From IMG/VR virus record IMGVR_UViG_3300028388_004387, positions 1 through 55,462 of that record: a stretch of DNA of 55,462 nt, one strand, 5' to 3'. The stretch comes from a virus (taxonomy: Duplodnaviria; Caudoviricetes). The notes beneath the pieces are model-generated. The model was not told where the DNA came from, made no database searches, and saw only the letters and a list, made by a program, of their open reading frames with translations. Both the position numbers and the translations under genes were made by a program. Positions 4,471 to 55,363 of this stretch are shown in pieces. The first letter of the stretch is position 1. Each line of letters opens with the position of its first letter.

Positions 4471-4505
4471 GAGCCGGGTGCAGGGATGACACTCGGCTCT
4501 TTTTT
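4471..4505 (+). terminator. Intrinsic terminator
   Basis: GAGCCGGGTG-loop-CACTCGGCTC followed by a T-run, directly before a promoter cassette. Confidence 0.8.
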
Positions 4506-4521
4506 AAAAAAGCTGCAAGAT

Positions 4522-4556
4522 ACTTGCATAGTAAAGTAAAGCACTTTATATTTGTA
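4522..4556 (+). promoter_or_regulatory. Repeated early promoter/operator cassette, copy 1
   Basis: ACTTGCATAGTAAAGTAAAGCACTTTATATTTGTA; -33-like TTG and -7 TAtaTTTG (4547-4554); inverted repeat TAAAGT-N5-ACTTTA in the spacer. Confidence 0.85.
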
Positions 4557-4589
4557 ATGCAATAACGCACAAACAGCAAAACAAACGTC

Positions 4590-4862: not shown

Positions 4863-4924
4863 TAAAACAAGCTGCGCAGCTTCTGCATAAGCGCTGGAGC
4901 TGCGCGCTTATTAAACTAAGCCAT

Positions 4925-5677
4925 ATGGAAAGCTCGAATAACAAGGCCGTAGAAATAGCAAACGCCCTGAGCAACGGAAGCCCCATGTGTTATTATGACG
5001 TGCGGTATTTCCTAAATCAGCACCCGCGGTTTCTTAACGCGGAGTATGTGTGCACACTAAAGGAATGGCGGGAGCAAGGGAGCGTCTGCAAGGCATGGCC
5101 GTTCTGGGAAGCGTACCGCTACCTGGGGCCGCAAGATATATGTATATTCTCTTTAGGCGACAAGTATTATGCAGTAGCATGGTATGGGGTGGTGCCCACC
5201 TACACTCCCAGCGTAAGGTTCCGACGCGTGTACTTCGACCGCCAGCCGCCTCGTCGCCGGAATCAGCGCACCTACAATATCGCTGATAACACCATAATAG
5301 ATACGCAGAGCCGCGAGGATAACGATTGTCAGGTGCGTTGCCTTGCTGAAATAACTCAACGCCCGTACAGTGAAATTCTCAAGCGCATGCAGCAGCTTGG
5401 GTGGAGCGCGAAGACGCCCGGCAGGTGGGAGCAAGACAGAATAGACGCTGTGCTGAAAGCGTACGGGCTAAAGAGGGTAGAGGTGTTTGCAAAGAAGTGG
5501 AATGACAAAACCGTGCAAGCACGCAACGCTGGGAAGCTAATTGAGCAGCATCACAGCGCGTGGCATACTGTACTCGTGTCAGGGCACGTTGCAGCGTGGA
5601 AGGAAGGTATGCTGTATGACTCTTGGGATAGCGGCAGGAGGCTTGTGCTGCGCATCGAGAGAATAGAGCCTCTCTAA
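4925..5677 (+). CDS. Two-domain protein with C-terminal putative papain/C39-like Cys-His-Asp domain
   Basis: NDCQVRCLA ... GHVAAWKEGMLYDSWDS pattern in the C-terminal half. Confidence 0.55.
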   Translation: MESSNNKAVEIANALSNGSPMCYYDVRYFLNQHPRFLNAEYVCTLKEWREQGSVCKAWPFWEAYRYLGPQDICIFSLGDKYYAVAWYGVVPTYTPSVRFRRVYFDRQPPRRRNQRTYNIADNTIIDTQSREDNDCQVRCLAEITQRPYSEILKRMQQLGWSAKTPGRWEQDRIDAVLKAYGLKRVEVFAKKWNDKTVQARNAGKLIEQHHSAWHTVLVSGHVAAWKEGMLYDSWDSGRRLVLRIERIEPL

Positions 5678-5703
5678 AAAAATTTAAAATCTTTTTGGAA
5701 GAT

Positions 5704-5738
5704 ACTTGCACAGTAAAGTAAAGCACTTTATATTTGTA
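5704..5738 (+). promoter_or_regulatory. Repeated early promoter/operator cassette, copy 2
   Basis: ACTTGCACAGTAAAGTAAAGCACTTTATATTTGTA. Confidence 0.85.
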
Positions 5739-5768
5739 GTACATTAGCAAACAAACAAAACAAACGTC

Positions 5769-5981
5769 ATGAAAAAATTATTTGCAATTATCTACAGAGA
5801 AGCACAAGGATACTACGGATACAACAAAGACGTGGTAGAAATGGTTTCCGTAAAAGATGTAAACACTGCATGCAGCGAAGACGCTCGCTTTGAAGTGTAC
5901 TGCACAGAGAAGAACGATGTAGACGCATGCTTAACGCACAGAGAAGCTAAAGCATGGGCAGCTAAAAACCTAAAGAAGTAA
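5769..5981 (+). CDS. Hypothetical early protein
   Basis: First ORF after cassette copy 2; leader CAAACGTCATG. Confidence 0.75.
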   Translation: MKKLFAIIYREAQGYYGYNKDVVEMVSVKDVNTACSEDARFEVYCTEKNDVDACLTHREAKAWAAKNLKK

Positions 5982-6034
5982 ACACAATTTTCAACCCGGG
6001 GGGCGTACAGCGCCCTCCACAATACCTTTATCAA

Positions 6035-6892
6035 ATGTCAAATTTCACAAAAGAACGATTCAATTACGAAGTCCAAACTTCACCCGTCTACTTCGAGTGC
6101 GGAGGTGAGTTTTGCGAAGTGCCTAACAAGCAGATTATCAAAACCAGCGACAATAAGGTGCTTAGCATTATGAGCAAAAGCTACAACCTTTTCACCAACG
6201 AGCAGTTTTGCGACCTTGCAGAGCAAATCAGCGACACGCTAAGCTTGAAGCTGCAATGGTATGCAGACTACAAAGGAGGCAGACAAGTGCTTGCAAGCTT
6301 TAAAAACGAGAGCGAGCTTAGCATCCTGGGGCACACGTTCAACTCCAACATCGTCCTCTTTGATAGCCGAGACGGTACAACGTGCTTAGGCTTAGCTGGA
6401 GTGGGTATGCTGCACAGATGCAAGAACATGTTCACAAGCGTAAAGAACAGCAAGACGCAGTACAAAATCCGCCACAACAATAAGCTGGAGGAAATGGTAG
6501 CAGAGTTTCAGCTCAACCTTGAGATGTACCACATTGCAGCGCAGCAGCGCATCAAGCGATTGGAAGCACTTGAGGGCGTGAAAATCACAGACAAAAATGC
6601 TATGGAGTGGATAGCTAAGTGGCAGGAGACGCAAGCGGATAAAGTTGCGGGAGTGCTAAAGGGGAAAGAGGATGTCTTGGCTGAAGTTAGCACACGTAAG
6701 CAAGGGATAATCACTGACGCTTGGGAAAGCTGGAAAACAGAGAGCAACGACCTTGGGAAGAACGGCTTTGCACTTTGGAACGCCACCACCCACTACTACA
6801 CACACGCAAGAGACAAGAAGCCAACAGATTTTTTGTTCGCCGATGCAGGCTACCAAGAGGAGCGCAGCATCAAGTTCGCGGAGGCCTTATAA
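6035..6892 (+). CDS. DUF932-family protein
   Basis: Pattern Y.L.TN..F, GGRQV, L.DSRDGT, RCKN, IRH, and LWNATT.YYTH matches the DUF932 layout. Confidence 0.7.
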   Translation: MSNFTKERFNYEVQTSPVYFECGGEFCEVPNKQIIKTSDNKVLSIMSKSYNLFTNEQFCDLAEQISDTLSLKLQWYADYKGGRQVLASFKNESELSILGHTFNSNIVLFDSRDGTTCLGLAGVGMLHRCKNMFTSVKNSKTQYKIRHNNKLEEMVAEFQLNLEMYHIAAQQRIKRLEALEGVKITDKNAMEWIAKWQETQADKVAGVLKGKEDVLAEVSTRKQGIITDAWESWKTESNDLGKNGFALWNATTHYYTHARDKKPTDFLFADAGYQEERSIKFAEAL

Positions 6893-6909
6893 ACCAACCT
6901 CAAGTTCAC

Positions 6910-6942
6910 GCGCCTGGTACTGCATAGTGCCGGGCGCTCTTT
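6910..6942 (+). terminator. Probable intrinsic terminator
   Basis: GCGCCTGGTACT-GCAT-AGTGCCGGGCGC hairpin followed by TCTTT. Confidence 0.65.
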
Positions 6943-6977
6943 AGCTGTAAAAAAAATTTAAAATCTTTTTGGAAGAT

Positions 6978-7012
6978 ACTTGCACAGTAAAGTAAAGCAC
7001 TTTATATTTACA
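6978..7012 (+). promoter_or_regulatory. Repeated early promoter/operator cassette, copy 3
   Basis: ACTTGCACAGTAAAGTAAAGCACTTTATATTTACA; upstream AAAATTTAAAATCTTTTTGGAAGAT shared with copy 2. Confidence 0.82.
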
Positions 7013-7047
7013 GTACAATAACAAACAAACAACTAAAAACAAACGTC

Positions 7048-7311
7048 ATGAATCCACAAGTAAAAGTATCTTTCGCAGACAATCAAGTTACCACTACCTA
7101 CACAGCAGGAAACGCAGTCCTAATCGTTAAGCAGGACACAAAGTATAACACAAGCATAATAACCATGCAGCACATGTACGGTAGGTTTCAAGCTGTAAAA
7201 GCAGCATGCAGCCCACAGGAGGCTTCTTACATTATGTCAAACTTCTTGAACAATGAGCTGAAAGAGGCACACGGAGCTCTTAAGTGCTGCGACGGAGCTG
7301 AATTGTTTTAG
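7048..7311 (+). CDS. Hypothetical early protein, paralog of 55020-55307
   Basis: Shared GNAVL.VK, H...RFQ, S.QE....MS.FL, AH.A.K...GAE. Confidence 0.8.
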   Translation: MNPQVKVSFADNQVTTTYTAGNAVLIVKQDTKYNTSIITMQHMYGRFQAVKAACSPQEASYIMSNFLNNELKEAHGALKCCDGAELF

Positions 7312-7371
7312 TCGAAACGCGCATTGCTGCGCGTCTACGGGAATAAGCCTACCCGTACTGAAGAGACAGGC
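7311..7371 (+). ncRNA. Hammerhead ribozyme, type II, with pseudoknot
   Basis: GTC-GAAA-CGCGCA(TTGC)TGCGCG-TC-TACGGG(AATAAGCCTA)CCCGTA-CTGAAGA-GAC-AGGC; all core nucleotides and stems I-III present; loop GCCT can pair with 3' AGGC; predicted cleavage after GUC at 7335. Confidence 0.92.
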
Positions 7372-7397
7372 AATAACAAACAAACAATCAAACAGTC

Positions 7398-7697
7398 ATG
7401 GGAAAAAATTTAAGAGTTACAATCAAAGAGGAAAGAGGCATGCGCACCAGCGTCCTTTGGACGCGATACACGCAGGACAAGCTTGGATTTGAAATTCGCG
7501 GGCACAGCTTAGGTGGACAGATGTTCATTTGCAGGATGCTTGAGGAGTGGGAGCCAGACGATGAATGCGACCAGTACCGCTTTGGGAAAATTGACGAAAT
7601 GGGCTTGCTCCCTTATGAGGTAGCGTACTTGCTGGACACGGTACAAGACAAAGGTATGGAAGCTGCGCACACGTTCCTTAAAAGCTTAAACCGATGA
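7398..7697 (+). CDS. Hypothetical protein
   Basis: 99-aa ORF with an AC-rich leader just downstream of the ribozyme. Confidence 0.75.
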   Translation: MGKNLRVTIKEERGMRTSVLWTRYTQDKLGFEIRGHSLGGQMFICRMLEEWEPDDECDQYRFGKIDEMGLLPYEVAYLLDTVQDKGMEAAHTFLKSLNR

Positions 7698-7933
7698 AAA
7701 AGAAATATGACGTTTTCCAATCTATGCAGCGCGGGGTCGTGCTGTTTATCATCATCACGATACTCGTGTTCTGCATAGTTGGTGCCTTAGAGGAGTCGCT
7801 CAACCCTGCCAGCTGGAGTAATGCAGCATCAGTCGCATTCGCGGTTGGAGTGTTCTGCGCAGCACTTGTAGGCATGCAGCACGCGATAGAAATTTGTGAC
7901 TTTAAAAGCAAGGACGATGGTAAAGGGATTTGA
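7694..7933 (+). CDS. Small membrane protein (2 TM)
   Basis: Hydrophobic segments VVLFIIITILVFCIVGAL and VAFAVGVFCAALVGM. Confidence 0.7.
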   Translation: MKKKYDVFQSMQRGVVLFIIITILVFCIVGALEESLNPASWSNAASVAFAVGVFCAALVGMQHAIEICDFKSKDDGKGI

Positions 7934-8348
7934 GGAGATTACTTACGAGGTAACAGACAATGAGCGCAAGCTTGCTAAGCAGATTTGGAGGATACTGCAA
8001 TCACGCCAAGGGGAGTATGTAACCAACGACCAGCTGCAAGAGCTGTTAGGCAAGAAGGTAGGCAATGCGCGCATCAGAAAAATCATACAGCACATTCGCA
8101 AGGTAGCGGCAAGCAACACAGTGCAAAAGCCAATGCCAGCAGTCATAGGAAATAAGAACGGCTATATGATGACACGCGATTTGCAAATGCAGCACGACCA
8201 CATCATTAGCCTTGCGCAAAAGATAAGCGCGCTGCAAACAAGCTTAAGAGCTGCTGACATAATTTACCGCAGGCAGCTGGAGCTTGAGAATAAAGCTTAC
8301 CAATTGAGTATTTACGCTGAACTTGGAATAGATGCAGAAGAAGAATAA
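7917..8348 (+). CDS. Putative winged-helix DNA-binding protein
   Basis: VTNDQLQELLG..VGNARIRKIIQHIR ... VIGNKNGY resembles an HTH plus wing. Confidence 0.6.
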   Translation: MVKGFEEITYEVTDNERKLAKQIWRILQSRQGEYVTNDQLQELLGKKVGNARIRKIIQHIRKVAASNTVQKPMPAVIGNKNGYMMTRDLQMQHDHIISLAQKISALQTSLRAADIIYRRQLELENKAYQLSIYAELGIDAEEE

Positions 8349-8356
8349 TATATTTG
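8349..8356 (+). promoter_or_regulatory. Bacteroidota -7 promoter element (TAtaTTTG)
   Basis: Exact TAnnTTTG in a short intergenic gap before 8370. Confidence 0.4.
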
Positions 8357-8369
8357 TATTTTTGCCTAT

Positions 8370-8753
8370 ATGGCAGCAAAAAGCAAAACGCTAAGCATGC
8401 GCACTCAACAAATTTACGCGACAGTGCGCGAGAGATGCTTTCTGCGCTATTTAAACAGCGAAAGGGTATACGAGGTGGCGGAGAAGCGAGAAAGTGGCGA
8501 TATGAAGCTCAATGTGTGGTTGTTGGATAATGGTCTGATGAAGCTTGCACGCAAAGGAGTAGAATGCGAGTACCACATTAGCAGCTTTGAGTACGGATTG
8601 GCGAACGGTACAATCGCAGTGCTTAGCGAAGCGCCCGGTACAAAGCTGGAGCAAGAGAAAAAGAAAGTAGCCGCACGCAAGGAGCAGGTGAAAGAAATAA
8701 AGAAACAGCGCAAGCAAGCAGCGCAAGCTGCACAGTCGCCAACGCTGTTTTAA
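8370..8753 (+). CDS. Hypothetical protein with basic C-terminal tail
   Basis: 127-aa ORF. Confidence 0.7.
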   Translation: MAAKSKTLSMRTQQIYATVRERCFLRYLNSERVYEVAEKRESGDMKLNVWLLDNGLMKLARKGVECEYHISSFEYGLANGTIAVLSEAPGTKLEQEKKKVAARKEQVKEIKKQRKQAAQAAQSPTLF

Positions 8754-8834
8754 GGAATTGAAAATTGACGTTTGTTTGTTGGGCGGAGTATGCAGCGCTC
8801 GCCAGCGCTCCGCCCACTTTTAAAACCAAAGAAA

Positions 8835-9122
8835 ATGAAGCTTACTAAGCAAGAGCGAAATCACGTAACCCACTGGCACGTCAGAGGCTTGGGAGTAGGT
8901 AAGCACGGGCACATTTTGCGCGACATTCCAATAAGGAGTTACCTGGTGGAAAGGTGCCACACAGAAAGCCAAGCAGCAGTAAGAGCGCTTGAGCTTATCC
9001 CCAGTGAAGAAATTACACACTTAGTAGTAAACGGAAGCGGGTATGGAGCCCGGTATGATGTTAGCTGGATAATGACAGTCAAAGAGCTTGTGGAAATGCG
9101 GAATAAAAGCCGCGCCACGTAA
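8835..9122 (+). CDS. Hypothetical protein
   Basis: In-frame ATG at 8835 after an A-rich leader within ORF 8772-9122. Confidence 0.65.
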   Translation: MKLTKQERNHVTHWHVRGLGVGKHGHILRDIPIRSYLVERCHTESQAAVRALELIPSEEITHLVVNGSGYGARYDVSWIMTVKELVEMRNKSRAT

Positions 9123-9140
9123 CCTGCGACCAACTTGAGA

Positions 9141-9186
9141 GCGGGCAGGGTTTTTCCTCGCACGGTTTTCCCTGCTCGCATTTTTT
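9141..9186 (+). terminator. Probable terminator or large-loop hairpin
   Basis: GCGGGCAGGG ... CCCTGCTCGC followed by ATTTTTT. Confidence 0.55.
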
Positions 9187-9208
9187 GAAGCAAATCAAAA
9201 CAGCAGAA

Positions 9209-9442
9209 ATGAATGTAGTAAAGCAAACAACGACAACCGGAGAGGTGTTCTTAACACATAGCTCAGACGGCACTTGGTTTTGCGAGGTAGGCGGACATGT
9301 TCTAAAGCGGACTACAGAGCCCTTCCTCTTTCAGCAGGATGTGTCAAAGCTGCAAATATTTGAGGAGGAGGATGTGATAGTGGCAGTGGAAACGGAGGAG
9401 CAGTTTAGGTCGCAGCTTGTAAAGCTTATGCGACATGCGTAA
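9209..9442 (+). CDS. Hypothetical protein
   Basis: In-frame ATG at 9209 within ORF 9185-9442. Confidence 0.6.
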   Translation: MNVVKQTTTTGEVFLTHSSDGTWFCEVGGHVLKRTTEPFLFQQDVSKLQIFEEEDVIVAVETEEQFRSQLVKLMRHA

Positions 9443-9674
9443 ATCAACAGAGAAACAGCGATACAACATAGCCGGAGAAGTGTATAAGCGACGCATGGAA
9501 ATGGGCATTACTGCACAAGAGGTTGATGAGCGGATTAGAGCGCTTGGAGTAAACGTCCCAAAGAACTATACGTCAAACGTTGAGTCAGCAAACGTCAAGT
9601 CGCTGCACACTCTTCGCTTCACGAGCTTGCGCTTTGTGCTTGGCATGAGTAAAAGGGCATACGCGGCGAAATGA
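9435..9674 (+). CDS. Putative XRE-like HTH protein
   Basis: IAGEVYKRRMEMGITAQEV...YTSNVES resembles a Cro/C1-type HTH. Confidence 0.55.
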   Translation: MRKSTEKQRYNIAGEVYKRRMEMGITAQEVDERIRALGVNVPKNYTSNVESANVKSLHTLRFTSLRFVLGMSKRAYAAK

Positions 9675-9732
9675 TAAAGAGCAGGGGTAGGCGCGCCAGC
9701 GCTTGCTTCTTTGTTTGGTTACATTAACAGTT

Positions 9733-9769
9733 AGGAAGAGGATAGTCAAGTCTATGCTCTTCCTTTTTT
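9733..9769 (+). terminator. Intrinsic terminator
   Basis: AGGAAGAG(G)ATAG-loop-CTAT(G)CTCTTCCT followed by a T-run. Confidence 0.75.
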
Positions 9770-9786
9770 ATATGCAGTGATATAGG

Positions 9787-9794
9787 TATATTTG
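9787..9794 (+). promoter_or_regulatory. Bacteroidota -7 element upstream of the tape measure operon
   Basis: TATATTTG between a terminator and the ATG at 9814. Confidence 0.55.
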
Positions 9795-9813
9795 TTAATA
9801 CTAAAGCCGCAGC

Positions 9814-12800
9814 ATGTCAAGGACTATCGCATTCAGCTTGGAGGTACAAGCGGTTGGCAGCATCGCCAGCCAACTTAGCACAGTAGGCCAAGAGCTGGAC
9901 AAGGTTGCCAAACGTACGAGAGAAGTCCGCAAACAGCTTAACACGCTAAATCAAGGAGGCGCTGGAGCAGAGGAAGTGCGCAGGCAACTACAGGCGCAAG
10001 GGCGCAGCGTTGACGATTTGCGGAAAGAATACAAGGAGCTGATAACGGAAAGCACGCGCCTCAAACAAAGCCAAAAAGATTTACGGAAAGATTTCCGAGA
10101 CCTTGCCAAGGATGCTGCTGCGGTACGCTTCCCGAAAGGCAGCTTAGCGGACCTGGAGCAGCGATACCGCAAGCTCAGACAAGAGATTAGGCTGCTGGAT
10201 GAAACAGCACTAAAAAGCAAGGGAGGGCAGCGCTTAATCTCAGAAGCGCGACAGCTAAAAACGCAAATAGACAGCACCAATCGCAGCATAGGGATATTCA
10301 ACGGGAATGTCGGTAACTATAAGAGCGCTTTCAGCGGGCTTGCAAGTGTGGTGAAAAGCACGGTTGGCGTTTACTTTAGTGCGCAAGCTATATTCAGAGG
10401 GCTGCAAGATGCAGTCACTACCATAAGGGAGTTTGAGCAGTCGCTTGCGGAGCTGCAATCAATCCTGGGTGTAACAGACCAGGAGCTGCAATTCTTTGGA
10501 GACCAGGCGCTACTCATTGGGCGCAACTTTGGAACAAGCGCCAAGGAGATAGCTGACGGCTTTGCGCTTATAGGCTCAAAGAAGCCAGACCTGCTTGAAG
10601 ATGCTGCTGCGCTTGCTGAAGTAACAAAGCAAGCCGACATCCTTGCGAACGCTGCTGGGCTTACATTGCCGGAGGCAGCTGATGCGCTTACAAAGTCGCT
10701 AAACCAATTCCAAGCCCCTGCACGGGACGCCTCAAAGTTTGTTGATATCTTAGCTACGTCGCAGCAGCGAGGTACCGCCCGGATTGAAGCACTTAGCGCC
10801 TCGCTAAAGAACGCGGGTGCGGTAGCCAACGCTTTTGGGCTAAGCTTTGAGGATACGAACGTTGTGCTGCAAGCACTTGCGAAGGGTGGGCAGGAAGCAG
10901 AGGAAGCTGGTACCAAGCTGCGTACCTTCCTATTGAAGCTTGCTGCAACTGGCGACAAAGATTTGAACCCTGCGCTGAACAGCACAGTGAGCATCTTAGA
11001 AACGCTGAAGGAGCGTTACACAGACCAGGAAACAGGTTTGCTGAACGTTACGGAGCTGACTGAAATATTTGGCGACAGGGCAGTGGTTGCTGCTACCACC
11101 CTAATCGGGCAAATAGATGCAGTTAAGACACTTGACGGAAACCTGCTGGAGCTGGGTAACGCTTTAGGGCAAGCAAACAACAATACCAACACACTTGACG
11201 GCTCTCTCAACAAGCTGGGGCAAGCATACGACGCTCTCATCTTAAGCTTGGAGGGAGGAGAAAAAAGAGTCAGCGGAGCGCTTAAAGGACTGACAGATCA
11301 GTTCACCGACCGCCTCACAGCGCTGCAAGAGTTTAATGACGGGAACATAGGATTCGGGCAGCTTATAGCAGTCATAACCGGGCAAGTCAACCCGCAGCTC
11401 ATCCTGCTTCAAGCGGAGCTGGAGCGCGCAAAAAAGAGCGCCACTGGCTTAAGCGAGGAAAGCGGAGAGGTATCGCTGCGCTTTAGCGACAATGCTACAA
11501 AGCTAAGAGCATACAAAGAGGAGCTTGAGGAAGCAGAGCTTGCACTAAGCGGAATAGAGGAGGGGACGAAAGGGTACGAGGATGCGCTGCGCAATGTTGA
11601 GCAACTGCAAACAATAGTAGGCAGGCTGGCAGGAGAGGTAGCTGCTGAATTAGCAGGTACTGCACAGCAACCAACGGAAACAATCGCCAGTCTTAAGGAG
11701 GAGCAGAAAAAGCTTAGAGAGGAGCTGGAAAGCACAGCTATAGGCACCCAGGAATTTGACGACAAGCTGGAGGAGCTTATTGATGTGAACAATAGGCTTG
11801 ACAAAGCAACTGAAAAGCTGCGCAAAAGCGTAAAGAAAGTCAAGGAGGAAGTAGAGCCCGCAGCAGGTAGCATAGACGCGCTGAACAAAAAAATCAGGGA
11901 GCTTACAAAGGACTTTAATGCAAGCGCTGACGAGCGGGAGCGACTAAGCATACTAAACCAGATAGACGAGCTTAAAGAGGAGCTTAGGTTCCTGCAAACA
12001 GGAGCCGCTGGGAAAATCATAATACCGCTGCCTGGCTTAGACGACGCAGCACTTGAAGAAGGGATAAAGGCAGCTGGAGAAAAAGTGCTTGATTTAGACA
12101 AGCAAATCAAAGCCATAGAGGAGTTGCAGCAGCGCAGCAACCTACAGCTTTTCGAGGAGTTTGGAAGCAACTATGAAAGCATTGAGGAGGCGGAGGGGCT
12201 GCTGGCTAACTTGCGCGCGCAGTTTGAAAAGTCAAAGTTTGCTATTGAGCAGGAGATAAAAACGCAAGTTGACATCACTGACTCGCTGCGTACAGTGCGC
12301 AGGCTGCAAAAAGTGTTTGAGGATTTCCGCAACTTAGAGGACCCGCTGCAACTGTACGAGGAAGTGCAAGCAGAGAAAGATAAAGCGCTTGTAGAGGACA
12401 TAGGCGACATTATCGAGTCGCAGCAAAGGGAAATAAAAAAGAACGCTGGGAAGTACAGCATAGGAGAGGAGTATCGCAAGCAAGCAGAAAAAGCAGCAGA
12501 AGCATGGGAGCAGCTAAGCGGATTATTCGTAGATATAGCTGGAGCGCTAAGCCAAGCAATTACAGACGCACAAATATCAGACATAGAGCGGGAAGAAGAA
12601 GCGCGAATCGCTGCGTTAGAAGCGCGCTATGAACGCGAAATAGACTTGGCGGGTGATAACGCCGAGGAGCAGGAACGCCTTGAGAAAAAGCTTGAGAGGG
12701 AGCGCAAGAAAATCGAAAAGGATGCAGCTAAAGAAAAGAAACGGCTTGCGCTTATTGATGCAGCCATACAAGTTGCTTTGTCTATCATCGAAGCTTCCCC

Positions 12801-13323
12801 GGACCCGATAAGGATAGCAGGAGCAATCGCTATTGGTGCAATACAGACAGCCACCATTGCTGCGCAGCAGTTTTGGAAAGGGGGTAAGGTGAAGCCAGAG
12901 GTGCTTAATGACGGGAAGATAAACGCACGCAGTAACGTAAAGCCAGACGCCCACGGTGATAGGGTGCTTGCACTTGTAAAGCCTGGAGAGGTGATACTGA
13001 ATGAATGGCAGCAAGCTTTGCTGGGCGGAGCGGCAACTTTTAAGAGGATAGGCGTACCCGGTTTCGCAGCAGGAGGAGCGGTAGGCTCGCAAGCTACACA
13101 AACACCGTTCGTGGTGACAAGCACAATACAAGGCAGGACAGAGATATCGCCACAAAGCATAGAAATGATGAGCAGGATGGTTGCTGGTGCTGTGCTGCAA
13201 AGCTTTGGGCTGGCACAAGAAGGGCTGGCACAGTCTTTCCGTGAAAGCATACAAGAGGGGCTTGAAATAGCAAACAGAAACAGAGAAAGAAGGATAGAAG
13301 CAAGCAAGCAAAGCACTTACTAA
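9814..13323 (+). CDS. Tail tape measure protein (TP901-type core)
   Basis: 1169 aa, helical; GNVGNYKSA motif, EFEQSLAELQSILG...GTSAKEIADG...AGTKLRT core, C-terminal F..GG.V...PGEVILN motif. Confidence 0.92.
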   Translation: MSRTIAFSLEVQAVGSIASQLSTVGQELDKVAKRTREVRKQLNTLNQGGAGAEEVRRQLQAQGRSVDDLRKEYKELITESTRLKQSQKDLRKDFRDLAKDAAAVRFPKGSLADLEQRYRKLRQEIRLLDETALKSKGGQRLISEARQLKTQIDSTNRSIGIFNGNVGNYKSAFSGLASVVKSTVGVYFSAQAIFRGLQDAVTTIREFEQSLAELQSILGVTDQELQFFGDQALLIGRNFGTSAKEIADGFALIGSKKPDLLEDAAALAEVTKQADILANAAGLTLPEAADALTKSLNQFQAPARDASKFVDILATSQQRGTARIEALSASLKNAGAVANAFGLSFEDTNVVLQALAKGGQEAEEAGTKLRTFLLKLAATGDKDLNPALNSTVSILETLKERYTDQETGLLNVTELTEIFGDRAVVAATTLIGQIDAVKTLDGNLLELGNALGQANNNTNTLDGSLNKLGQAYDALILSLEGGEKRVSGALKGLTDQFTDRLTALQEFNDGNIGFGQLIAVITGQVNPQLILLQAELERAKKSATGLSEESGEVSLRFSDNATKLRAYKEELEEAELALSGIEEGTKGYEDALRNVEQLQTIVGRLAGEVAAELAGTAQQPTETIASLKEEQKKLREELESTAIGTQEFDDKLEELIDVNNRLDKATEKLRKSVKKVKEEVEPAAGSIDALNKKIRELTKDFNASADERERLSILNQIDELKEELRFLQTGAAGKIIIPLPGLDDAALEEGIKAAGEKVLDLDKQIKAIEELQQRSNLQLFEEFGSNYESIEEAEGLLANLRAQFEKSKFAIEQEIKTQVDITDSLRTVRRLQKVFEDFRNLEDPLQLYEEVQAEKDKALVEDIGDIIESQQREIKKNAGKYSIGEEYRKQAEKAAEAWEQLSGLFVDIAGALSQAITDAQISDIEREEEARIAALEARYEREIDLAGDNAEEQERLEKKLERERKKIEKDAAKEKKRLALIDAAIQVALSIIEASPDPIRIAGAIAIGAIQTATIAAQQFWKGGKVKPEVLNDGKINARSNVKPDAHGDRVLALVKPGEVILNEWQQALLGGAATFKRIGVPGFAAGGAVGSQATQTPFVVTSTIQGRTEISPQSIEMMSRMVAGAVLQSFGLAQEGLAQSFRESIQEGLEIANRNRERRIEASKQSTY

Positions 13324-14940: not shown

Positions 14941-17900
14941 ATGTCAGAGTGCTGCTTAGTCATAGAAATAATTGAAGCGCTGGAGCATGTGCCCAGCCGC
15001 TTTTATGAAAGCGATGGACGCTTAATTTTAGACTTGGATAGTGGCAGCAGCTTAAGCTTAGATAAGAAAGCAGAGGAGCTGAATGACATTAACCAAATCA
15101 GCATAGACGTTGCAGCTCCTTTCACAGTCCCCGCAAGCGATAAGAACTTTGCTATACTGCGCGAATACCTAAACGCAAATATCTGGAACCAAAACTTCAA
15201 GCCGTGGGTTGTGCGTGTAACGCAAGGAGGGGAGCCACTGCGCATGCGCTACCTTTACCCGCGTGCTTTTAACGAAGGAGCAGATTCATTTGAGCTTATT
15301 CTAAGCACGGATGAGCATTGGGTGCAAAAAGCAAGCGAGTTAAGGCTATGTGACCTAAACCTCCCTGCCATACCCGTAAGCTGCGCAACGTGGCTGGATA
15401 AGATGCAAAACAACGCGCAGTACGTAGACGGGGACGATGGGTATTGGATTCCGCTTGTAAACTACGGAGGGCAGAATGTTCTAAACTATGTGCCTATTGA
15501 ATTCCTGCGCCCGTGGTACAGCTTGCTTTACTTGCTCCAGGTTGGCTTTTGCCAAATAGGCTTTAAACTTTCAGCGCCAGCATTGGAGACAGCGTTCGGT
15601 AGACGCATTCTCTCGTACGTTTGGAGCGAGGACTACGGAAAGGACCGGTACGTGCTTGATAAGCGCAGAGCAAGCGCGAGAATGACTCTCACGGATATTC
15701 CTCCGTATGGTCAGGTACCTTTTACGATGGTAGTAACAGAGGAAGTAGGAATAAGCTCTCAAAATGAAATCCCGCTGAACGATGTGCTGCAAGACGAAAG
15801 CCAGCTGCTGCAACCAAAGCCGTCAGGGCAGTTTGGAACGTTTACTGCATATACCGGCACAGGCATTGTAGAGGTAGCGATTAAGGGGTACCTGGATAAT
15901 GTGGATTATCTGCCAGCGAGCATCATAACCAATTTGGTGCTGCACATAAGGCTCGTGAAGAGGGACCAGGACGGCAACGACATACCGCTCGAAAATCACG
16001 TCATCCCTTGGGACCCGGTAGTAGCTCCGCGCCTACAATTCAACCACACATTTGAGCCCGCTGAAGTGCTGCCCGGGGAATACCTGTTCATAGACGTAGT
16101 ATGCGACCCGGTTGGGCAGGCGTTTGGAGAAGGGCAAGCGTTTGGGATAAACATGAGCGCTGACTTTGAAACGCAGCGCGTTTTCTTTAGCGAGGGAGAG
16201 GAGATAGACCCGTCAAGCAACATTAGCTGCAAGGATAGTTTCTTAGACCTTGTCAAAGCTGCTGCGCACTTGCTGAACGCAAAGTTTGACACAAACCTTG
16301 CAAGGCAGGAGGTAGGCATGTACTGCCCGTACGATGTGGAGTGGTACGGAGAGAGTGTTGAAGGGTACTATATTGAGGATGGGGAAGTGGATGACTGGAG
16401 CGATAAAGTGCAGTGCAAAAGCGAGCGCACAACTACGCCGGAGAACAATAGGGAAAGGTATTTGAATATCGGGTTTAAAAGGAGCCAGGATAAGTACATA
16501 GACGACACGCTCAACGAGGATGAAATAGACGAGGAGTTCAATCACATACAGGACCTTGGGGAGCAGTATCGTGACGCTACAAAATCAATACGAAATCCGC
16601 TATTTGAGCCAACACTAAACGGCGACGTTTTAATCGCCAACCAGGAAGTGCAAGAGGTGCTGAATATTCCCGTGTGCTGGGACAACGAGGATGGGGAGGA
16701 GATAAGCTACAAGCTTGGATACCGTTTGCTGTACGCTCACGGCTGGGATATGCAGTATTTCGAGGAGGTGGCTCGGGAGTGGTTTTTCTGCTTGGATGGA
16801 GCAAGTTACACATCGCTGCCTCTTGCATATCAAATTCCAAACCGCCCGACAGCCATTACCGGCACCGCAACCACGCCCGACATCCCAATGTGGCGCCTGA
16901 CATACGGAGCAAGTGTCAACAGCTTGTTCAATATGTTTTACCGCAGGATAATAGCAGAGACGCTTGAAAATTACGGCATAGAGTTTTTGATTTACATAGA
17001 CGTGAACATGTGGGGGTTCATAGACTTCCGCAAGCGCTATGCAATCAACTACAAAGACACGGTCCTTGTCGCATGGATAAAGGAAATCAGAGATTGGCTT
17101 CCGTGCAGTGATGTAAGCACGCCGGTTGCATTTCGCGGAGTAAGGGAAAGCACAGACTGCCTCCCAGACCCTATACTTGCGCTACCTCCCGGAGCGGGGT
17201 TTTGTAGCGGTAATAACCCGGCTATCGTTGCAGTAAGAAATGGAAGCTGCGTAGACTTTAGCATAGGCGGTGTAAGTGTGAGCCCAATCGTCTTTCAAGA
17301 GTGGGAGTATAAGAAGGCGTCTGAGACGGTGTTTACAAGCTTCGGGACTAATCCTACCGCCAACCTGTGCACGGGCGAGAGAACCACGATAAAGCTTACT
17401 GTCGCGTATGATATAGGCCCGGATGGCTCTACATGCGAACCTAAAACAGTCATAACCGTTATCAATCCATGCGCAGACAACCGCCCTGTCGGGCTATGCG
17501 AAAGCTATCAAAACGAAGATGGAGACTGGTGCCTTAAAGCAGAGGTAGGAGGGGTTATTTTTGACCCGTACGTTGAGCAGAATTTTGAGTATAGCGTGAA
17601 CGGAGGCACAACGTGGAGCAGCTACACAAGCGGTTCTGAGCTTTGCGGCTTAGCAGGCACAGTGAATTTCCGCGTTACGTTGAACTGGAGCAATGATTGC
17701 GCAGACACGCTCCTGGAGTGGAGCTGCAACGTTGAGCCAGCCATACTTGACTGCGATGTAACTGACGCCGATGTAACATGCGCAGAGGTAGGAGGAGAGG
17801 TATGCTGCTTTGAGATAACGCCAAGCGCCACACAGTTCGCCTGCCAGGTAGCAACGGATGTGGTTTACTGGAGGGGAACGAACGATGGAAGCACATGGAC

Positions 17901-20900
17901 AGAATGGACTGAATGGGACGGCAGTAATGTGTGCGGGCACAGCAAGCTACAAGTAAAGCGCGTTATCACTTTTTGTGATGATTGCTGCCCAACGTATTGC
18001 AGCCCGATAAGCGAATGCCAGTGCTGCGATTTGACAGCAGACGCAGGCGCTGATGAAAGTATATGCCCAGGCACTATAACAACGCTCACAGCAACACCTA
18101 CAGGAGGCACAGCGCCCTACACATACGAATGGCAAGACAGTAGCGGTACAACAATAGGCACAACGCAGTCAGTCAACGTAATGCCTGCAAGCACAGAAAC
18201 ATACACGGTGATAATCACAGACGCGCTTGGATGTACTGCACAGGATAGCGTCACCATTACCGTGTACCCGGAGATGGCTTTGAGCGTAAGCGGAGACCCA
18301 GGCCTTGCAATCTGCAACGGCGGAAGCACTGATGTGGAGGTTACAGTTACGGGCGGCACAGCGCCTTTCACTTATGACTGGAGAGAGGTAGGCGGAGGTA
18401 GCTTAGGCACAACCAATCCAATCACCCTTTCCCCTGTTGTCACCACAGACTACGAGGTGGAGGTTACGGATGCAAATGGCTGCTCTAAAATCGAGCTTTT
18501 CACTATTACCGTGTACCCAGCGGTGACAGCAGACGCAGGGCCCGACGTTACAACGTGTCAGGGTACAGTTGTGCTTACGGGTACACCAGGAGGAGGCACA
18601 GCGCCTTACACAGAGGAGTGGGAAGACCCGAGCGGGATAATCACACCCGGCAACCCTTTAACCGTTTCGCCTCCTGTTACGGGCACCTACATTTATCGCG
18701 TAACCGACGCCAACGGATGCACAGCGGAAGATACTTTGCTGCTAACTGCAAGCGCAGGCCCCACTGCTGATGCTGGAGCTGACCAAACCATTTGCCCGGG
18801 CGATACTGCAACGCTATCAGGCAGCGCGACAGGCGGTACAGCACCCTACTCATACGAGTGGTTTGAAGGGGCTGTCAGCATAGGTACAACGCAAAACGTG
18901 AACGTAACGCCAGCAAGCACAACAACCTACACGCTTGAAGTAACAGACGCGAGCGGCTGCATAAGCACTGACACGGTAGAAATAATCGTAGATTCATGCG
19001 CTCCGGCGTGCGGGATTTCGTGCAGCATTGCAACCAACCCAAGCCCTGCGGAAATATGCGAAGGAGATAGTGTTGAGTTCACAGTAACTCCAGCAGGCAT
19101 GACAGGTCCTTACACTTACGAATGGGATGCGGATGGGGGCGGCTTCATGACTGGCTCCCAGACAATGGTGTTCACCTTCGTAAATGCAGGCACGTACACA
19201 GTACAGGCGCGCGTAACTGATGCAAACGGATGTATGACAACGTGCAGCGTAAGCGTTGACGTAGAGGAGCCATTATGCGACCCGGGCGCACAAGCTGCAA
19301 CCGTTTGCCAAGACTCGGGCACATATACGCTTTGGAGCTTGTTGACTTGGCCTTTTCCTTGCACGCCTCCGTCGCCTGCGACAGGGAATTGGTCGCTGGT
19401 AAGCGGAAACGCAAGTTGGTTCACACTTAGCGCCGACGGAGATCCGACTAACGACATTATAGATACCACAGGTATAGCGGGCGGAAGCACAGCAAGCTTA
19501 GACCTTACTCTAACCAATGGCGCATGCGCTGACCTGATTATACGATTAGACATAACCATTCGCTCACAATTCTTTTCCGGGCACCTTGCAGTTACTCCAG
19601 TCATCGATGTATGTGCACTTGGATTTGACGGCAAGGAATTTGACCTTAAAACGGTGTACGACACATGGCTTGCAACGCAAGGGCAGCCGCCAGCCGATGC
19701 GGGAGGAGAGTGGTGCGAGGTGAAATACGATTCTGGGTGCGTCGGTCCCTACACAACAAAGGAGGTAGATGCGGAAAGCACAGGCTGCACAACATACCCA
19801 ACAACCAGCGATATTCTTCCCGGCGGAGATAACCCGACAGTGAACTTCGAGTGTGGCGCACCTAACGACGGATGCTACCGCATAAGGTACAAAGCTCCAG
19901 CTGGAGAGTTGTGCCCAAACGACACAGTCGTAACCTTTAAGAGCGAAACCTGTACGCCAACATGTACAGCTTCCGTAACCATTACCGGAACCTGCTTGCT
20001 TACTGCAAACGTGACAGGCGGATGCCCAGGCGCTACATACCAGTGGCAGAGGTTTGTGGGAGGTAGCTGGTTCAACATTGCAGGGGCTACCAATAGCACT
20101 TACTTAAGCACCGCAAACGAAACGGTGAGAGTGCAAGTTTCATGCACGGATGGGTGTTCTTATACCAGCGCCCCCAGAACCGTTTCATGTGCGCCAGCAT
20201 GTACAGCGACAGCCACAGTCAATCAAAACTGCTGCCTGCTAACATTGATTACCACAAACTGCTCCTCTCAAACACAGCAGTGGCAGGAGTTTGTTGGAGG
20301 TAGCTGGGTGAATATTTCCGGAGCCACAGGAACCACTTTCAACGCCACAGGAAATGGCACCTATAGAGCTGCTGTAAATTGCTCGGGTTGCCCGACTATT
20401 TTTACTGCATCGCGGACGGTAAATATCAACGCTACAATCAGCGAATCAAGCTGCGTACTCACCGCAACCGTGACAGGGTGTACCAGCGTTTCAAACTACC
20501 AGTGGCAAGAGTTTACAGGAGGAACCTGGCAGAATAGAGGAAGCAACCAAAGCACGCACGACATAAGCGGTACCAATAGTACATGGCGGTGCGTTATAAC
20601 GATGGTAGGCGGATGCACATATACCTCCAACACCATATCAAAGAACTGCGTTGTAGCGTGCAGTATCTCCATATCGCTGGTTGAGCTGCCTAACGGAGAT
20701 TTGCGCGCCACTGCAAGCGGCTGCGGCACCTTAGATACTCCTCAATGGACGTATGCTACAAGCTACACTATTCCGGGCTCATGTTCGGGTGCAGGAGGCT
20801 GGTCTGCTGCGACAGGCACAACGGTAACGATAGGTAACGTATCAACGCACACACCTGCCAATGGCGCGCAGTGTTATAGAATTATTTGGAGGTGCTTAGA

Positions 20901-37743: not shown

Positions 37744-37772
37744 GAAGCTTCATTTCGCATCGTTTGCTTTTA

Positions 37773-37803
37773 GGTGGGTGTCGCATAGGCGCCCACTTTT
37801 TTT
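37773..37803 (+). terminator. Intrinsic terminator
   Basis: GTGGGTGTC-GCATA-GGCGCCCAC followed by a T-run, directly before cassette copy 4. Confidence 0.8.
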
Positions 37804-37821
37804 GTGACTTTTTTGCAGAAA

Positions 37822-37856
37822 ACTTGCACAGTAAAGTAAAGCACTTTATATTTGTA
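37822..37856 (+). promoter_or_regulatory. Repeated early promoter/operator cassette, copy 4 (heads the recombination and DNA-modification region)
   Basis: ACTTGCACAGTAAAGTAAAGCACTTTATATTTGTA, continuing ATGCAATAACGCACAA as in copies 1 and 5. Confidence 0.85.
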
Positions 37857-37889
37857 ATGCAATAACGCACAAGCAACAAACAAACGCAA

Positions 37890-38087
37890 ATGACAACTTC
37901 AATCTTAAACTCGCAGTACCAATCTTACCTTTCATTCCAGCAACGCCTTAAAGAAAATGACTTCCCTTACGACCAGCCGCTCCTTACCAAGGAGGAGTTT
38001 ATCAAAAAGGAGAAAGCAAAAATGGAGAGGTTGCTTAAAGAGGAGGCAGCTCACCAGCGCAGGATAAGGTCTTTAGAACGAAGGTAG
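37890..38087 (+). CDS. Small hypothetical early protein
   Basis: First ORF after cassette copy 4; its TAG overlaps a hammerhead ribozyme. Confidence 0.75.
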   Translation: MTTSILNSQYQSYLSFQQRLKENDFPYDQPLLTKEEFIKKEKAKMERLLKEEAAHQRRIRSLERR

Positions 38088-38146
38088 CCGAAACCTCCTC
38101 CGGGAGGTCTGCTGGAAATAACCTACCAGCACTGACGAGGCAGGTT
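38087..38146 (+). ncRNA. Hammerhead ribozyme, type II, with pseudoknot
   Basis: GCC-GAAA-CCTCC(TCCG)GGAGG-TC-TGCTGG(AAATAACCTA)CCAGCA-CTGACGA-GGC-AGGTT; loop AACCT can pair with 3' AGGTT; predicted cleavage after GUC at 38109. Confidence 0.92.
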
Positions 38147-38262
38147 CCTTATGAAGCAATACAAACAAGACATTTTAGAAACTAAACTACACACCGCCCG
38201 GGAGTCCTACCACTCTCTCAACACCCTTATAAGCTCCCGGGCACTTTAAAATCAAATGCAAT

Positions 38263-39228
38263 ATGGCACAAGAAAAACAGCCGAAAAAAAGTTTTGTGGA
38301 GCGCATGCGCGACAACGTATTAAAGCCCCTGCAAGAGCTCGGGATGGAAAAGGCGCAAGCGGAGGCAGAAATACAATGGGCAGCAGAGCAGATTCTTAGC
38401 TCGGAGCAGCTTTTAAAGTGTTCAGCAAATAGCCTTTTCAATGCTGTGCTGGATACTGCACGAATGGGACTATCTCTTAACCCTTCTCGCGCTGAAGCTT
38501 ACTTAACCACAAAGTGGGATAAGGTGTCTAAATCGGCTAAGGCATATTTAGAGCCAAGCTACCGAGGCTTGACTTTGTTAGCTGCGCAATCTTGCGGAGC
38601 CAAGTACAGCATTGCTCATGTAGTGTACAGCGACGACGATTTTGTTATGCCCAATCTGCTTGACCCAAAAAGCGTTGCGGTTCATAAGCCAAGCTTAAAA
38701 AAGAGCGGAGAGCCTATAGGCGCTTATTCGCAGTTCGTTCTACCTGACGGTACTGCGCTGTTTGAGTACATGACGATTGACGAGATTAAGGAGGTGCGTA
38801 GTGCAAGCCAAGGGTGGCAGGCATTTGAGAAAAAGAAAATACAAGCAACGCCCTGGCACAATTGGTTTGGAGAAATGGCGCGCAAGACAGTAGTAAGGAG
38901 GCATATCAAATACCTACCTAAGTACGAGAACACGAAGTACGAAAAGCTGATGGCTGCTGCAAGCGCGATAGATAGCCAATACGAGTTTGAAAACACTCCG
39001 GTGGTAGTAGCAGCGGATGAGCAGGAGAACGTGCGAGAGAACGCGCGAGAAACGCTTGTGAAGCAAATTACCGAGGGCTTAAGCAAGTGCAGCAAAGAAA
39101 CACAGCAAGAGCTGAAGGAGCTGCTAAGAGAGAAAAAGGCAGCAGGAGAAATCACCTTGCAGCTACTTGAGGCAGTGGCGAAGCAAATAGAGGAAGAAAT
39201 TGCAGAATCAACAAGCACGGAGCAGTGA
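38263..39228 (+). CDS. recT: RecT-family single-strand annealing protein
   Basis: LLKCSANSL.NA....A..GLSLNP...EAYL, SYRGL, VVY..DDF, PW..WF.EMARKTVVRR..KYLP. Confidence 0.92.
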   Translation: MAQEKQPKKSFVERMRDNVLKPLQELGMEKAQAEAEIQWAAEQILSSEQLLKCSANSLFNAVLDTARMGLSLNPSRAEAYLTTKWDKVSKSAKAYLEPSYRGLTLLAAQSCGAKYSIAHVVYSDDDFVMPNLLDPKSVAVHKPSLKKSGEPIGAYSQFVLPDGTALFEYMTIDEIKEVRSASQGWQAFEKKKIQATPWHNWFGEMARKTVVRRHIKYLPKYENTKYEKLMAAASAIDSQYEFENTPVVVAADEQENVRENARETLVKQITEGLSKCSKETQQELKELLREKKAAGEITLQLLEAVAKQIEEEIAESTSTEQ

Positions 39229-39863
39229 AAATCTACGACAACATAGTGCAGGGCACTCCCGAGTGGGACGACATTAGGTGCGGCAAAATCACGGGCTCAA
39301 AAATGAATACTCTAATGCAAAAAGGCGGAGTAGGAGATGACTGGGGAGCGGGAGCTGTGACATACGCCTATGAGCTGGCGGCAGAAAGAATGCTGCTGCG
39401 CAACGAAGAGCCTAAGTTTAACCTGCCGCAATTCCAGCGAGGACATGAGGAGGAGGTGCTGGTGAAAAAGAAGCTGCTTGAGGAGTATTGGGAGCCTATA
39501 CAGGAAGTGGGTTTTATACAGCTTAACGACTACTTTGGCGTGAGCCCTGACGGTATTGTTGGCGGGGAAATATTGCTGGAGTGTAAAAGCATAGAAAGCC
39601 CAAGCAAGTTTCTTCGGTTTGTAGACGAGGAGAAAATACCTAACGACCATTACGCGCAAATGCAGGCGGGTATGTATGCAGGCAACTTTCAGTCTGCGTG
39701 GTACGTGCAGTACAACGGAGCCATGAGGAGCTTTCACCGCGTGATAGTTGCGCGAGATGAAACGTTCGTACAAGACATGGCTGTACGTATTGCAAATTTC
39801 AATCAGTACGTTGACAAGCTTAAAATGGAGCTACATGAAAAGGTACGTCAGGGGAATTTTTAG
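39225..39863 (+). CDS. YqaJ/lambda-type exonuclease
   Basis: QGTPEW...R.GKITGS, RGH..E, GVSPDG, LECK, Y.AQMQ; GTG start overlapping the recT stop. Confidence 0.92.
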   Translation: MKIYDNIVQGTPEWDDIRCGKITGSKMNTLMQKGGVGDDWGAGAVTYAYELAAERMLLRNEEPKFNLPQFQRGHEEEVLVKKKLLEEYWEPIQEVGFIQLNDYFGVSPDGIVGGEILLECKSIESPSKFLRFVDEEKIPNDHYAQMQAGMYAGNFQSAWYVQYNGAMRSFHRVIVARDETFVQDMAVRIANFNQYVDKLKMELHEKVRQGNF

Positions 39864-40567: not shown

Positions 40568-40805
40568 CTTCGAGCTTGACGGAGTTAAGTATGCAGCATT
40601 TCACGGAGAGTGTAGACTGGAGGATAGGGGCGGCAAGTGCTTTCTAATAGTAAAGGGAAGCGTAGGAGAGCTGGTGGTTGCTTTGAGCAATGTTGCAGAC
40701 ATGAAGTTTGGCAGCAATAAAACGTCAAAAGCAAACGTCTTAAACCTGTGCAGCACACAGGACAATCAAAACAATAAACCACAAAAAACCAATGACAACG
40801 ACTGA
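40467..40805 (+). CDS. Hypothetical protein (start uncertain)
   Basis: 112-aa ORF filling the gap before queE. Confidence 0.5.
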   Translation: MAKRMYKYMSSLKRERAELLLSEWKLWTVVLKDSFELDGVKYAAFHGECRLEDRGGKCFLIVKGSVGELVVALSNVADMKFGSNKTSKANVLNLCSTQDNQNNKPQKTNDND

Positions 40806-41595: not shown

Positions 41596-41641
41596 ATAGG
41601 AAAATCAAGTAGTAAACTTTATCTTAGCACAAACAGGAAAT

Positions 41642-42490: not shown

Positions 42491-42492
42491 GC

Positions 42493-44618: not shown

Positions 44619-44629
44619 AATCAAAGAAC

Positions 44630-54924: not shown

Positions 54925-54950
54925 AAAAAATTAAAATCTTTTTGCGAGAT

Positions 54951-54985
54951 ACTTGCACAGTAAAGTAATTGGCTTTATATTTGTA
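54951..54985 (+). promoter_or_regulatory. Repeated early promoter/operator cassette, copy 5 (variant spacer)
   Basis: ACTTGCACAGTAAAGTAATTGGCTTTATATTTGTA. Confidence 0.85.
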
Positions 54986-55019
54986 ATGCAATAACGCACA
55001 AACAAACAATTTTTAAAGC

Positions 55020-55307: not shown

Positions 55308-55326
55308 TTAAAAAAAATTGCGAAAA

Positions 55327-55361: not shown

Positions 55362-55363
55362 GC

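Follow-up and report, generated by a model that had tools for sequence, protein, structure and literature searches.

Phage type II hammerheads whose stem II abuts or overlaps an upstream stop codon

Results

Here, we describe two type II hammerheads in a caudoviricete genome and a family-wide habit by which the stop codon of the preceding gene runs into the ribozyme. The window analysed is the whole of viral record IMGVR_UViG_3300028388_004387 (55,462 bp, with a 99-bp terminal repeat). The first hammerhead (copy 1) lies at 7311-7371 on the plus strand between two open reading frames (ORFs) and is complete and pseudoknotted (Table 1). Its core and three stems, which a preliminary description of the locus had proposed, are read directly from the sequence, and the pseudoknot between loop I and the tail (GCCU with AGGC) is confirmed. 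Stem II is built of G7311-C7367, U7312-A7366 and C7313-G7365 and ends at 3 bp because A7310 faces A7368. The G of the TAG that closes the upstream ORF is indeed the first base of this stem, and the cut site placed at 7335/7336 is correct as a prediction, since C17 is base 7335 by hammerhead numbering.

A second hammerhead (copy 2) occupies 38087-38146 of the plus strand. Compensatory changes set the two copies apart in stem II (U-A in one, C-G in the other), in the pseudoknot (G-C and A-U) and in both capped stems, I and III. Both carry the positions that define the hammerhead core (C3 U4 G5 A6 N7 G8 A9, G12 A13 A14, the pair A15.1-U16.1 and H17). The pairs adjoining the core (10.1-11.1, 1.1-2.1 and 15.1-16.1) are G7365-C7313, U7336-A7357 and A7317-U7334 in copy 1 and G38139-C38089, U38110-A38131 and A38093-U38108 in copy 2. 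Descriptor, folds and Rfam alignment agree on the type II topology, in which stems I and III are capped by loops and stem II is open. The loop I/tail pseudoknot, which most type II members have (Perreault 2011, PMC3088659), comprises at least 4 bp in both copies. No third copy was found in the window by relaxed descriptors or by an unfiltered covariance-model search.

Table 1. Positions of the two hammerheads, their neighbouring genes and the repeated units of the window
Feature	Position	Strand	Remarks
Upstream ORF of copy 1, 87 aa	7048..7311	+	stop TAG 7309-7311; no family match
Copy 1 stem II, 5′ strand GUC	7311..7313	+	G7311 doubles as third base of the stop codon
Copy 1 core G12 A13 A14 A15.1 (GAAA)	7314..7317	+	
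Copy 1 stem III hairpin, 7 bp including A15.1-U16.1	7317-7323 with 7328-7334	+	loop UUGC
Copy 1 C17	7335	+	predicted scissile bond 7335/7336, from hammerhead numbering in Perreault 2011 Methods
Copy 1 stem I hairpin, 6 bp	7336-7341 with 7352-7357	+	10-nt loop 7342-7351; AAUAAGCCUA
Copy 1 core C3 U4 G5 A6 N7 G8 A9 (CUGAAGA)	7358..7364	+	
Copy 1 stem II, 3′ strand GAC	7365..7367	+	
Copy 1 tail AGGC	7368..7371	+	4-bp pseudoknot with GCCU 7347-7350 of loop I
A/C-rich leader CAAUAACAAACAAACAAUCAAACAGUC	7372..7397	+	no Shine-Dalgarno (SD) motif; aligns with leaders after six promoter-like repeats
Downstream ORF of copy 1, 99 aa	7398..7697	+	no family match
Upstream ORF of copy 2, 65 aa	37890..38087	+	stop TAG 38085-38087
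Copy 2 stem II GCC/GGC	38087-38089 with 38139-38141	+	
Copy 2 GAAA	38090-38093	+	
Copy 2 stem III	38093-38108	+	loop UCCG
Copy 2 C17	38109	+	
Copy 2 stem I	38110-38115 with 38126-38131	+	
Copy 2 core CUGACGA	38132-38138	+	
Copy 2 tail AGGUU	38142-38146	+	5-bp pseudoknot with AACCU 38120-38124
RecT-like annealing protein	38263..39228	+	first clear gene 3′ of copy 2
YqaJ-type exonuclease	39225-39863	+	directly after RecT-like gene
Promoter-like repeats 1-2	4494-4576, 5676-5758		
Promoter-like repeat 3	6950..7032	+	TTG, ~20 nt, TATATTTA; -7 box with one mismatch; A/C-rich leader, then ORF 7048
Promoter-like repeat 4	37794..37876	+	first bases overlapped by terminator-like hairpin 37772-37798 with T-run
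Promoter-like repeats 5-6	54923-55005, 55299-55381		
Stable GC-rich hairpins	4869-4909 (unit 1), 5998-6018 (unit 2)		same slot as hammerheads in units 3 and 4
Stable GC-rich hairpin	6910-6937		after DUF932 gene; z -3.35; 0/200 shuffles as stable
99-bp terminal repeat	1-99 and 55364-55462		holds leader and first 21 codons of ORF 36-260

A full structural descriptor (core, three stems and their adjacency) matched the window twice, both times on the plus strand, and matched none of 300 dinucleotide shuffles. With a looser descriptor the same two matches alone were returned from the window, and 16 matches arose across 14 of the 300 shuffles. The bare core pattern is not significant (two matches versus 0.92 expected, with 26 of 100 shuffles reaching two or more).

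RF02276 (Hammerhead_II) gave no match in the whole window at the gathering score, and no Rfam match was obtained at E ≤ 10 in the 281-nt slice 7200-7480. On the 91-nt slice 7295-7385, RF02276 aligned with 7310-7375 over model positions 1-66 of 66 (34.8 bits, E 3.8e-6). Copy 2 aligned over the same 66 of 66 positions with 36.6 bits (E 2.2e-6 on a short slice and 1.8e-7 in the search of its own genome, which recovered copy 2 alone). The default Rfam scan is blank because both scores fall just below the curated gathering score of 37, by 2.2 and 0.4 bits, a value that serves as an annotation cut-off and not as a biological criterion. The shortfall accompanies loop differences and one inserted base after CUGANGA, by which stem II has 3 bp versus 2 in the model. 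Recognition by Infernal and Rfam, put forward earlier as a check, was thus obtained as full-length matches on short slices but not above the gathering score. Both elements are type II hammerheads and belong to the established family RF02276.

Relatives were collected from viral contigs with the pattern GAAAC..GTCT..ACTGANGAGNCAGG, which specifies nothing 5′ of GAAAC. At least 120 stretches matched, and all survey counts are among the matches listed. The 120 fetched loci held 133 pattern instances; of the 128 with at least 300 nt upstream, 118 passed the stem test and 10 failed. A general type II descriptor found 159 hammerheads in the same 1.14 Mb and none on the reversed, non-complemented control. 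After restriction to unique elements with sufficient upstream sequence 146 remained, 42 of them outside the scan pattern.

An alignment of 132 rows combined the two window copies with 130 of the 146, those with a 3-bp stem II, a length of at most 80 nt and a distinct core. Paired cells amount to 95.2% versus 71.4% after shuffling (0 of 500 shuffles as high; 32-39% in slid controls), a value that arises partly by construction, since the descriptor used to choose the rows itself demands pairing. This does not apply to double changes, which affect 17 of 19 pairs. The pseudoknot covaries as well: three of its four pairs are altered on both sides, and its mean length is 5.07 bp versus 3.62 bp with loops permuted among instances. 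The covariance model derived from these 132 hammerheads, with both window copies part of its seed, scores the copies at 72.2 and 72.3 bits and the next window match at 9.8.

The ORFs flanking the viral hammerheads are small, with medians of 91 aa upstream and 89.5 aa downstream. The 136 downstream proteins matched 69 PHROG families at E ≤ 1e-5, including SSB, helicase, anti-repressor and anti-restriction families and two that are also found beside copy 1. Two or more type II hammerheads are present on 24 of 98 contigs, and arrays at successive gene junctions reach eight elements in viral contig L022 (8127-11325) and five each in L023 and L065; L006, L015 and L110 also carry arrays. Distant RecT homologues (22-33% identity) are encoded on the hammerhead-bearing contigs L028, L017, L121, L095 and L034, and in at least three of these (L028, L017 and L034) the homologue lies 1.5-3 kb 3′ of a hammerhead, which echoes copy 2.

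The overlap of stop codon and stem II was quantified as the offset of the stop closing the longest upstream frame, with 0 assigned when the last base of the stop is also the first to pair in stem II. Among the 146 unique viral hammerheads the offset is 0 in 58, -1 in 31 and -2 to -4 in 23, and among the 42 outside the scan pattern these counts are 14, 5 and 8. Counted over 132 sequence clusters, 51 have offset 0, 27 have -1, 22 have -2 to -4 and in 32 the stop is farther away. Decoys, defined as AG[TC]C sites of the same strands (n = 5639), reach 5.2% at offset 0 and 2.9% at -1. Where a frame of at least 60 codons ends no more than 30 nt away, decoys (n = 650) reach 15.8% and 7.7% and hammerheads under the same condition (n = 123) 45.5% and 21.1%. 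Offset -2 is rare (4/110). The stop-codon/stem II overlap is therefore real and family-wide.

The bases around this edge separate what belongs to the ribozyme from what belongs to the stop. An A stands immediately 5′ of stem II in 106 of 111 hammerheads, whether or not a stop is there, and matches the leading A of the Rfam consensus; it therefore belongs to the ribozyme. The T at -2, present in 58 of 111, is part of an in-frame TAG in 45 of these cases and is therefore present for the stop codon. No stop is possible 3′ of offset 0 because the next triplets start with A-G or G. TAG accounts for 58 of 89 abutting stops versus 21.9% of background stops (p ~3e-18) and for 11 of the 60 stops in the window. 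The start codon of the next ORF follows at a median of 28 nt after stem II (101/113 instances), so that, with the stop on its 5′ edge, the ribozyme is wedged between a stop codon and the next ribosome-binding region.

Both hammerheads directly follow the first small ORF of a repeated promoter-like unit. The window contains six copies of an 83-nt direct repeat that consists of TTG, about 20 nt and then TATATTTG or TATATTTA, and whose sequence fits the Bacteroides promoter consensus (-7 TAnnTTTG / -33 TTTG; PMC7366714). An A/C-rich leader (AACAAACAAA..CGTC-ATG) comes after every repeat, and then a small first ORF (65-95 aa). The sequence 3′ of copy 1 can be aligned base by base with the six repeat-associated leaders (CAATAACAAACAAACAA ... 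GTCATG), and a similar stretch follows copy 2. Units 3 and 4 carry the hammerheads, and the corresponding position behind the first ORF of units 1 and 2 is taken by a stable hairpin (z -3.3 and -4.1; stability matched by 0 of 200 shuffles). A paralogue of ORF 7048-7311 is encoded at 55020-55307 (BLASTP, 41% identity, E 2e-17; neither with a family match); it, too, follows a promoter-like repeat but has no ribozyme after it. Scans for sigma-70 promoters and terminators near both copies stayed at shuffle level; the signal there came from the repeat family rather than from a consensus scan.

Downstream of copy 2, a 32-aa ORF (38151-38249) was considered as the next gene and is doubtful, its ATG lying within a leader-like motif. 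A 10-bp stem with a 27-nt loop (38196-38242) is located just 5′ of the RecT start.

All genes of the window are on the plus strand. Annotations include a tape measure protein, head protease, large terminase, RecT and YqaJ-type exonuclease, a replication initiator and a 7-deazaguanine gene set. An SD-like motif precedes just 9 of 60 gene starts, and the sequence 5′ of starts is A-rich. Gene junctions range from -17 to +13 nt without one favoured distance, and at 58% of 71 junctions the next gene starts no more than 13 nt from the previous stop without a ribozyme; these spacings come from a crude gene caller, which missed small genes in the fetched loci (median gap 51 nt) and was applied to the window only. 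Bacteroidetes mRNAs lack classical SD sequences (PMC7366714). The Bacteroides-like -33/-7 promoter repeats together with the scarcity of SD motifs suggest that the host is probably a member of the Bacteroidota.

A tRNA scan of the window found none, and megablast of positions 5000-13000 against a phage collection gave no match. A look-up of sequencing runs with positions 5500-9500 listed none. Pattern matches in viral contigs for the RecT and DUF932 proteins yielded none that tblastn confirmed as a relative of the phage, and a tblastn search with 60 window proteins brought up just 13 distant matches (22-34% identity) among the 120 fetched loci. ORF 36-260, which begins in the terminal repeat, would be driven by promoter-like repeat 6 at the opposite end of the record. 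The 7-deazaguanine (queuosine-precursor) gene set at 40792-45358 encodes a QueE-like radical SAM protein, a GTP cyclohydrolase, a queuine tRNA-ribosyltransferase-like and a QueC-like protein, which suggests modified phage DNA. A 2327-aa protein with Hoc-like (Ig-like) decoration domains is encoded at 14941-21924; its gene contains internal repeats at the DNA level with a spacing of ~240-490 nt (18084-19144, 20035-20338).

Discussion

Constitutive intergenic cutting, as proposed in 2011, is the best-supported reading of these elements. Hammerheads of this kind cleaved ~2-kb prophage transcripts in vitro and in Escherichia coli, and processing into gene-length mRNAs was proposed as their role (Perreault 2011, PMC3088659). 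We consider it likely that both window copies are active, constitutive type II hammerheads, each severing a polycistronic phage transcript at the junction of two cistrons. From promoter-like repeat 3 (6950-7032) an RNA would arise that comprises ORF 7048-7311, the ribozyme and the genes downstream, and when transcription has completed stem II and supplied the pseudoknot tail, this RNA would cut itself after C7335. The upstream piece would then end in the stem III hairpin, 24 nt past the last base of the stop codon, with a 2′,3′-cyclic phosphate. The downstream piece would open with a 5′-OH on the stem I hairpin, and behind this hairpin would come an A/C-rich leader like that of promoter-proximal genes. 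The cut would thereby detach the small gene at the head of the operon from the genes behind it and leave both pieces with hairpin-capped ends, so that their stability and translation should change independently. RNase III sites between genes of phage T7 and synthetic RiboJ insulators likewise combine a cut between cistrons with hairpin-capped ends and independent expression of neighbours. T7 sites use a host enzyme and RiboJ is engineered, whereas the window element is natural and would cut itself; the likeness is a functional analogy and not membership. We infer in vivo cleavage, the nature of the ends and any effect on expression from the sequence, and it is plausible, as had been suggested for this locus before, that 5′-OH ends alter mRNA stability. 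The hairpins in the matching slots of sister units are in keeping with a function in separation or in protecting ends. We also considered splicing or circularisation that would join the two ribozymes and rejected it, as they are 30.8 kb apart and Perreault 2011 reports no such products.

Under constitutive cutting, the stop codon could come to lie at the edge of the ribozyme for two reasons. The ribozyme would have to lie outside the translated region, and its conserved 5′ A-G would supply two thirds of TAG, or the last A of TAA or TGA. With stop bases supplied by this edge, the tightest packing would end the ORF exactly there. A ribosome terminating at TAG would have to melt stem II and the core briefly, which is a geometric consequence and not a demonstration of selected control.

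Several observations weigh against active, constitutive hammerheads packed tightly behind a gene. The folding energy of the 76-nt copy 1 element is not significant (z = -1.45), both copies miss the Rfam gathering score, and the paired share of the alignment owes something to row selection. The pseudoknot of copy 1 has just 4 bp; in one construct, cutting the pseudoknot from 6 bp to 4 bp lowered the rate ~20-fold (Perreault 2011, PMC3088659). When copy 2 is folded together with 100 nt of upstream coding RNA (37980-38200), the minimum-energy structure swaps stem I for long-range pairing with the end of the upstream ORF. This alternative is weak (ensemble frequency 0.0001; z -0.94, not significant); if it were real, translation would promote folding of the ribozyme and not hinder it. 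A ribozyme is missing from four of the six promoter units and is thus dispensable for this gene layout. Finally, tight packing alone is not a full account of the overlap, in view of the TAG excess and of window junctions without a preferred spacing.

The TAG excess and the rarity of offset -2 are what plain packing explains least well, and both count in favour of a translation-gated ribozyme. Ribosomes terminating at TAG would keep stem II and the core open, the cleavage rate would report translation of the upstream ORF, and the overlap would have been selected. With a stop codon in the A site, about a dozen bases further 3′ are covered by the ribosome. Such a footprint would extend over stem II and GAAA into stem III; a stop anywhere within ~10 nt, however, would occlude the ribozyme equally, so that exact abutment is unneeded. 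In favour of gating, the stop is at offset 0 or -1 in 89 of 146 hammerheads, well above both sets of decoys, TAG as the deepest overlap is enriched 3-fold over background, and offset -2, which shares no base, is rare; yet in about a quarter of the clusters (32/132) the stop is more than 4 nt away. The upstream ORFs, moreover, are ordinary genes (median 91 aa) and not leader peptides, and arrays of up to eight ribozymes at consecutive junctions are easier to see as punctuation than as sensors. Because the cut cannot be reversed, it would merely be delayed by a transient block. We regard gating as unlikely. The terminating-ribosome coupling of the preliminary description stands as reasonable geometry, with a stop that abuts or overlaps stem II far more often than decoy sites do; its statement that pseudoknotted type II hammerheads are present between genes of bacteria and phages, in roles that are largely unclear, is in line with Perreault 2011 and a 2019 NAR review. 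Equally improbable, in our judgement, is the broader proposal that the overlap was selected to couple cleavage to translation in phage type II hammerheads at large, with the cut also supplying a fresh 5′ end to the leader in a host without SD sequences. If coupling were true, the ribozyme would fold between terminating ribosomes; well-translated upstream genes would preserve the operon longer and idle ones would release the downstream message.

Alternatively, the ribozyme could act as a surrogate for a promoter by making a fresh 5′ end before the A/C-rich leader, which would render [ribozyme + leader] and [promoter + leader] interchangeable and let the next gene be translated like a promoter-proximal one in a host without SD sequences. 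The alignment of the copy 1 flank with six repeat leaders and the similar flank of copy 2 are in line with this, but a shared leader may equally reflect duplication of a leader-plus-gene cassette. The few SD-like motifs (9/60 starts) and A-rich upstream regions agree with Bacteroidetes translation without classical SD sequences (PMC7366714); in the wider family, however, the next gene usually has an SD-like motif, and the many close junctions without ribozyme (58% of 71) indicate that a free 5′ end is not generally needed. On balance this explanation is more doubtful still. A chance motif or a decayed, non-cleaving relic, for which Rfam scores below gathering, a bare core expected about once per window and the short copy 1 pseudoknot might speak, is very improbable given the absence of full structural matches in 300 shuffles, two copies with compensatory changes in every helix, core positions that all fit the published consensus (Perreault 2011, PMC3088659) and 132 covarying relatives with a common architecture.

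The window copies resemble published type II hammerheads (RF02276; Perreault 2011, PMC3088659) in the open stem II, capped stems I and III, invariant core and short stem II, in the pseudoknot of loop I with a tail just 3′ of stem II, and in their setting between co-oriented small genes of phage origin, often with several per genome, for which processing of long transcripts was proposed. Like them, the RF02276 consensus begins with a conserved A before stem II; unlike it, the window copies have a 3-bp instead of a 2-bp stem II with one inserted base, and the host is apparently a member of the Bacteroidota. Three type II hammerheads of Desulfovibrio vulgaris self-cleaved in total RNA as seen by cyPhyRNA-seq, which captures 2′,3′-cyclic phosphate and 5′-OH ends (Olzog et al. 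2021, PMC8782182). These are of the same type, but are chromosomal and have direct RNA evidence from a cultivated bacterium, whereas the window copies are predicted from sequence. In the haloviruses HF1 and HF2, HHphage lies 13 nt before the start codon of the gene that opens an early polycistronic transcript, with a mapped 5′ end no more than 3 nt from the cleavage site (Perreault 2011, PMC3088659). This parallels copy 2 at the head of a RecT/exonuclease operon. HHphage differs in that it is a core variant of an archaeal virus and is described there without an upstream ORF or stop overlap.

The stop-codon habit was not found in the literature searched, although the supplementary alignments of Perreault 2011, which were outside the search, may show it; the term 'stop codon' has no occurrence in the main text of Perreault 2011, the cyPhyRNA-seq paper (PMC8782182) or the 2019 NAR review. 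The hammerheads themselves add to a large family already known, and what such ribozymes do in bacteria and phages has been called largely elusive (2019 NAR review). A regulatory interpretation of the stop-codon overlap is plausible on geometric grounds. This one genome offers a natural comparison, in that six near-identical promoter-leader units include two with a ribozyme, two with a plain hairpin and one with a paralogous first gene. Together with the family-wide stop rule, this unit layout would provide direct handles on whether such ribozymes cut and stabilise phage messages and on whether translation influences them.

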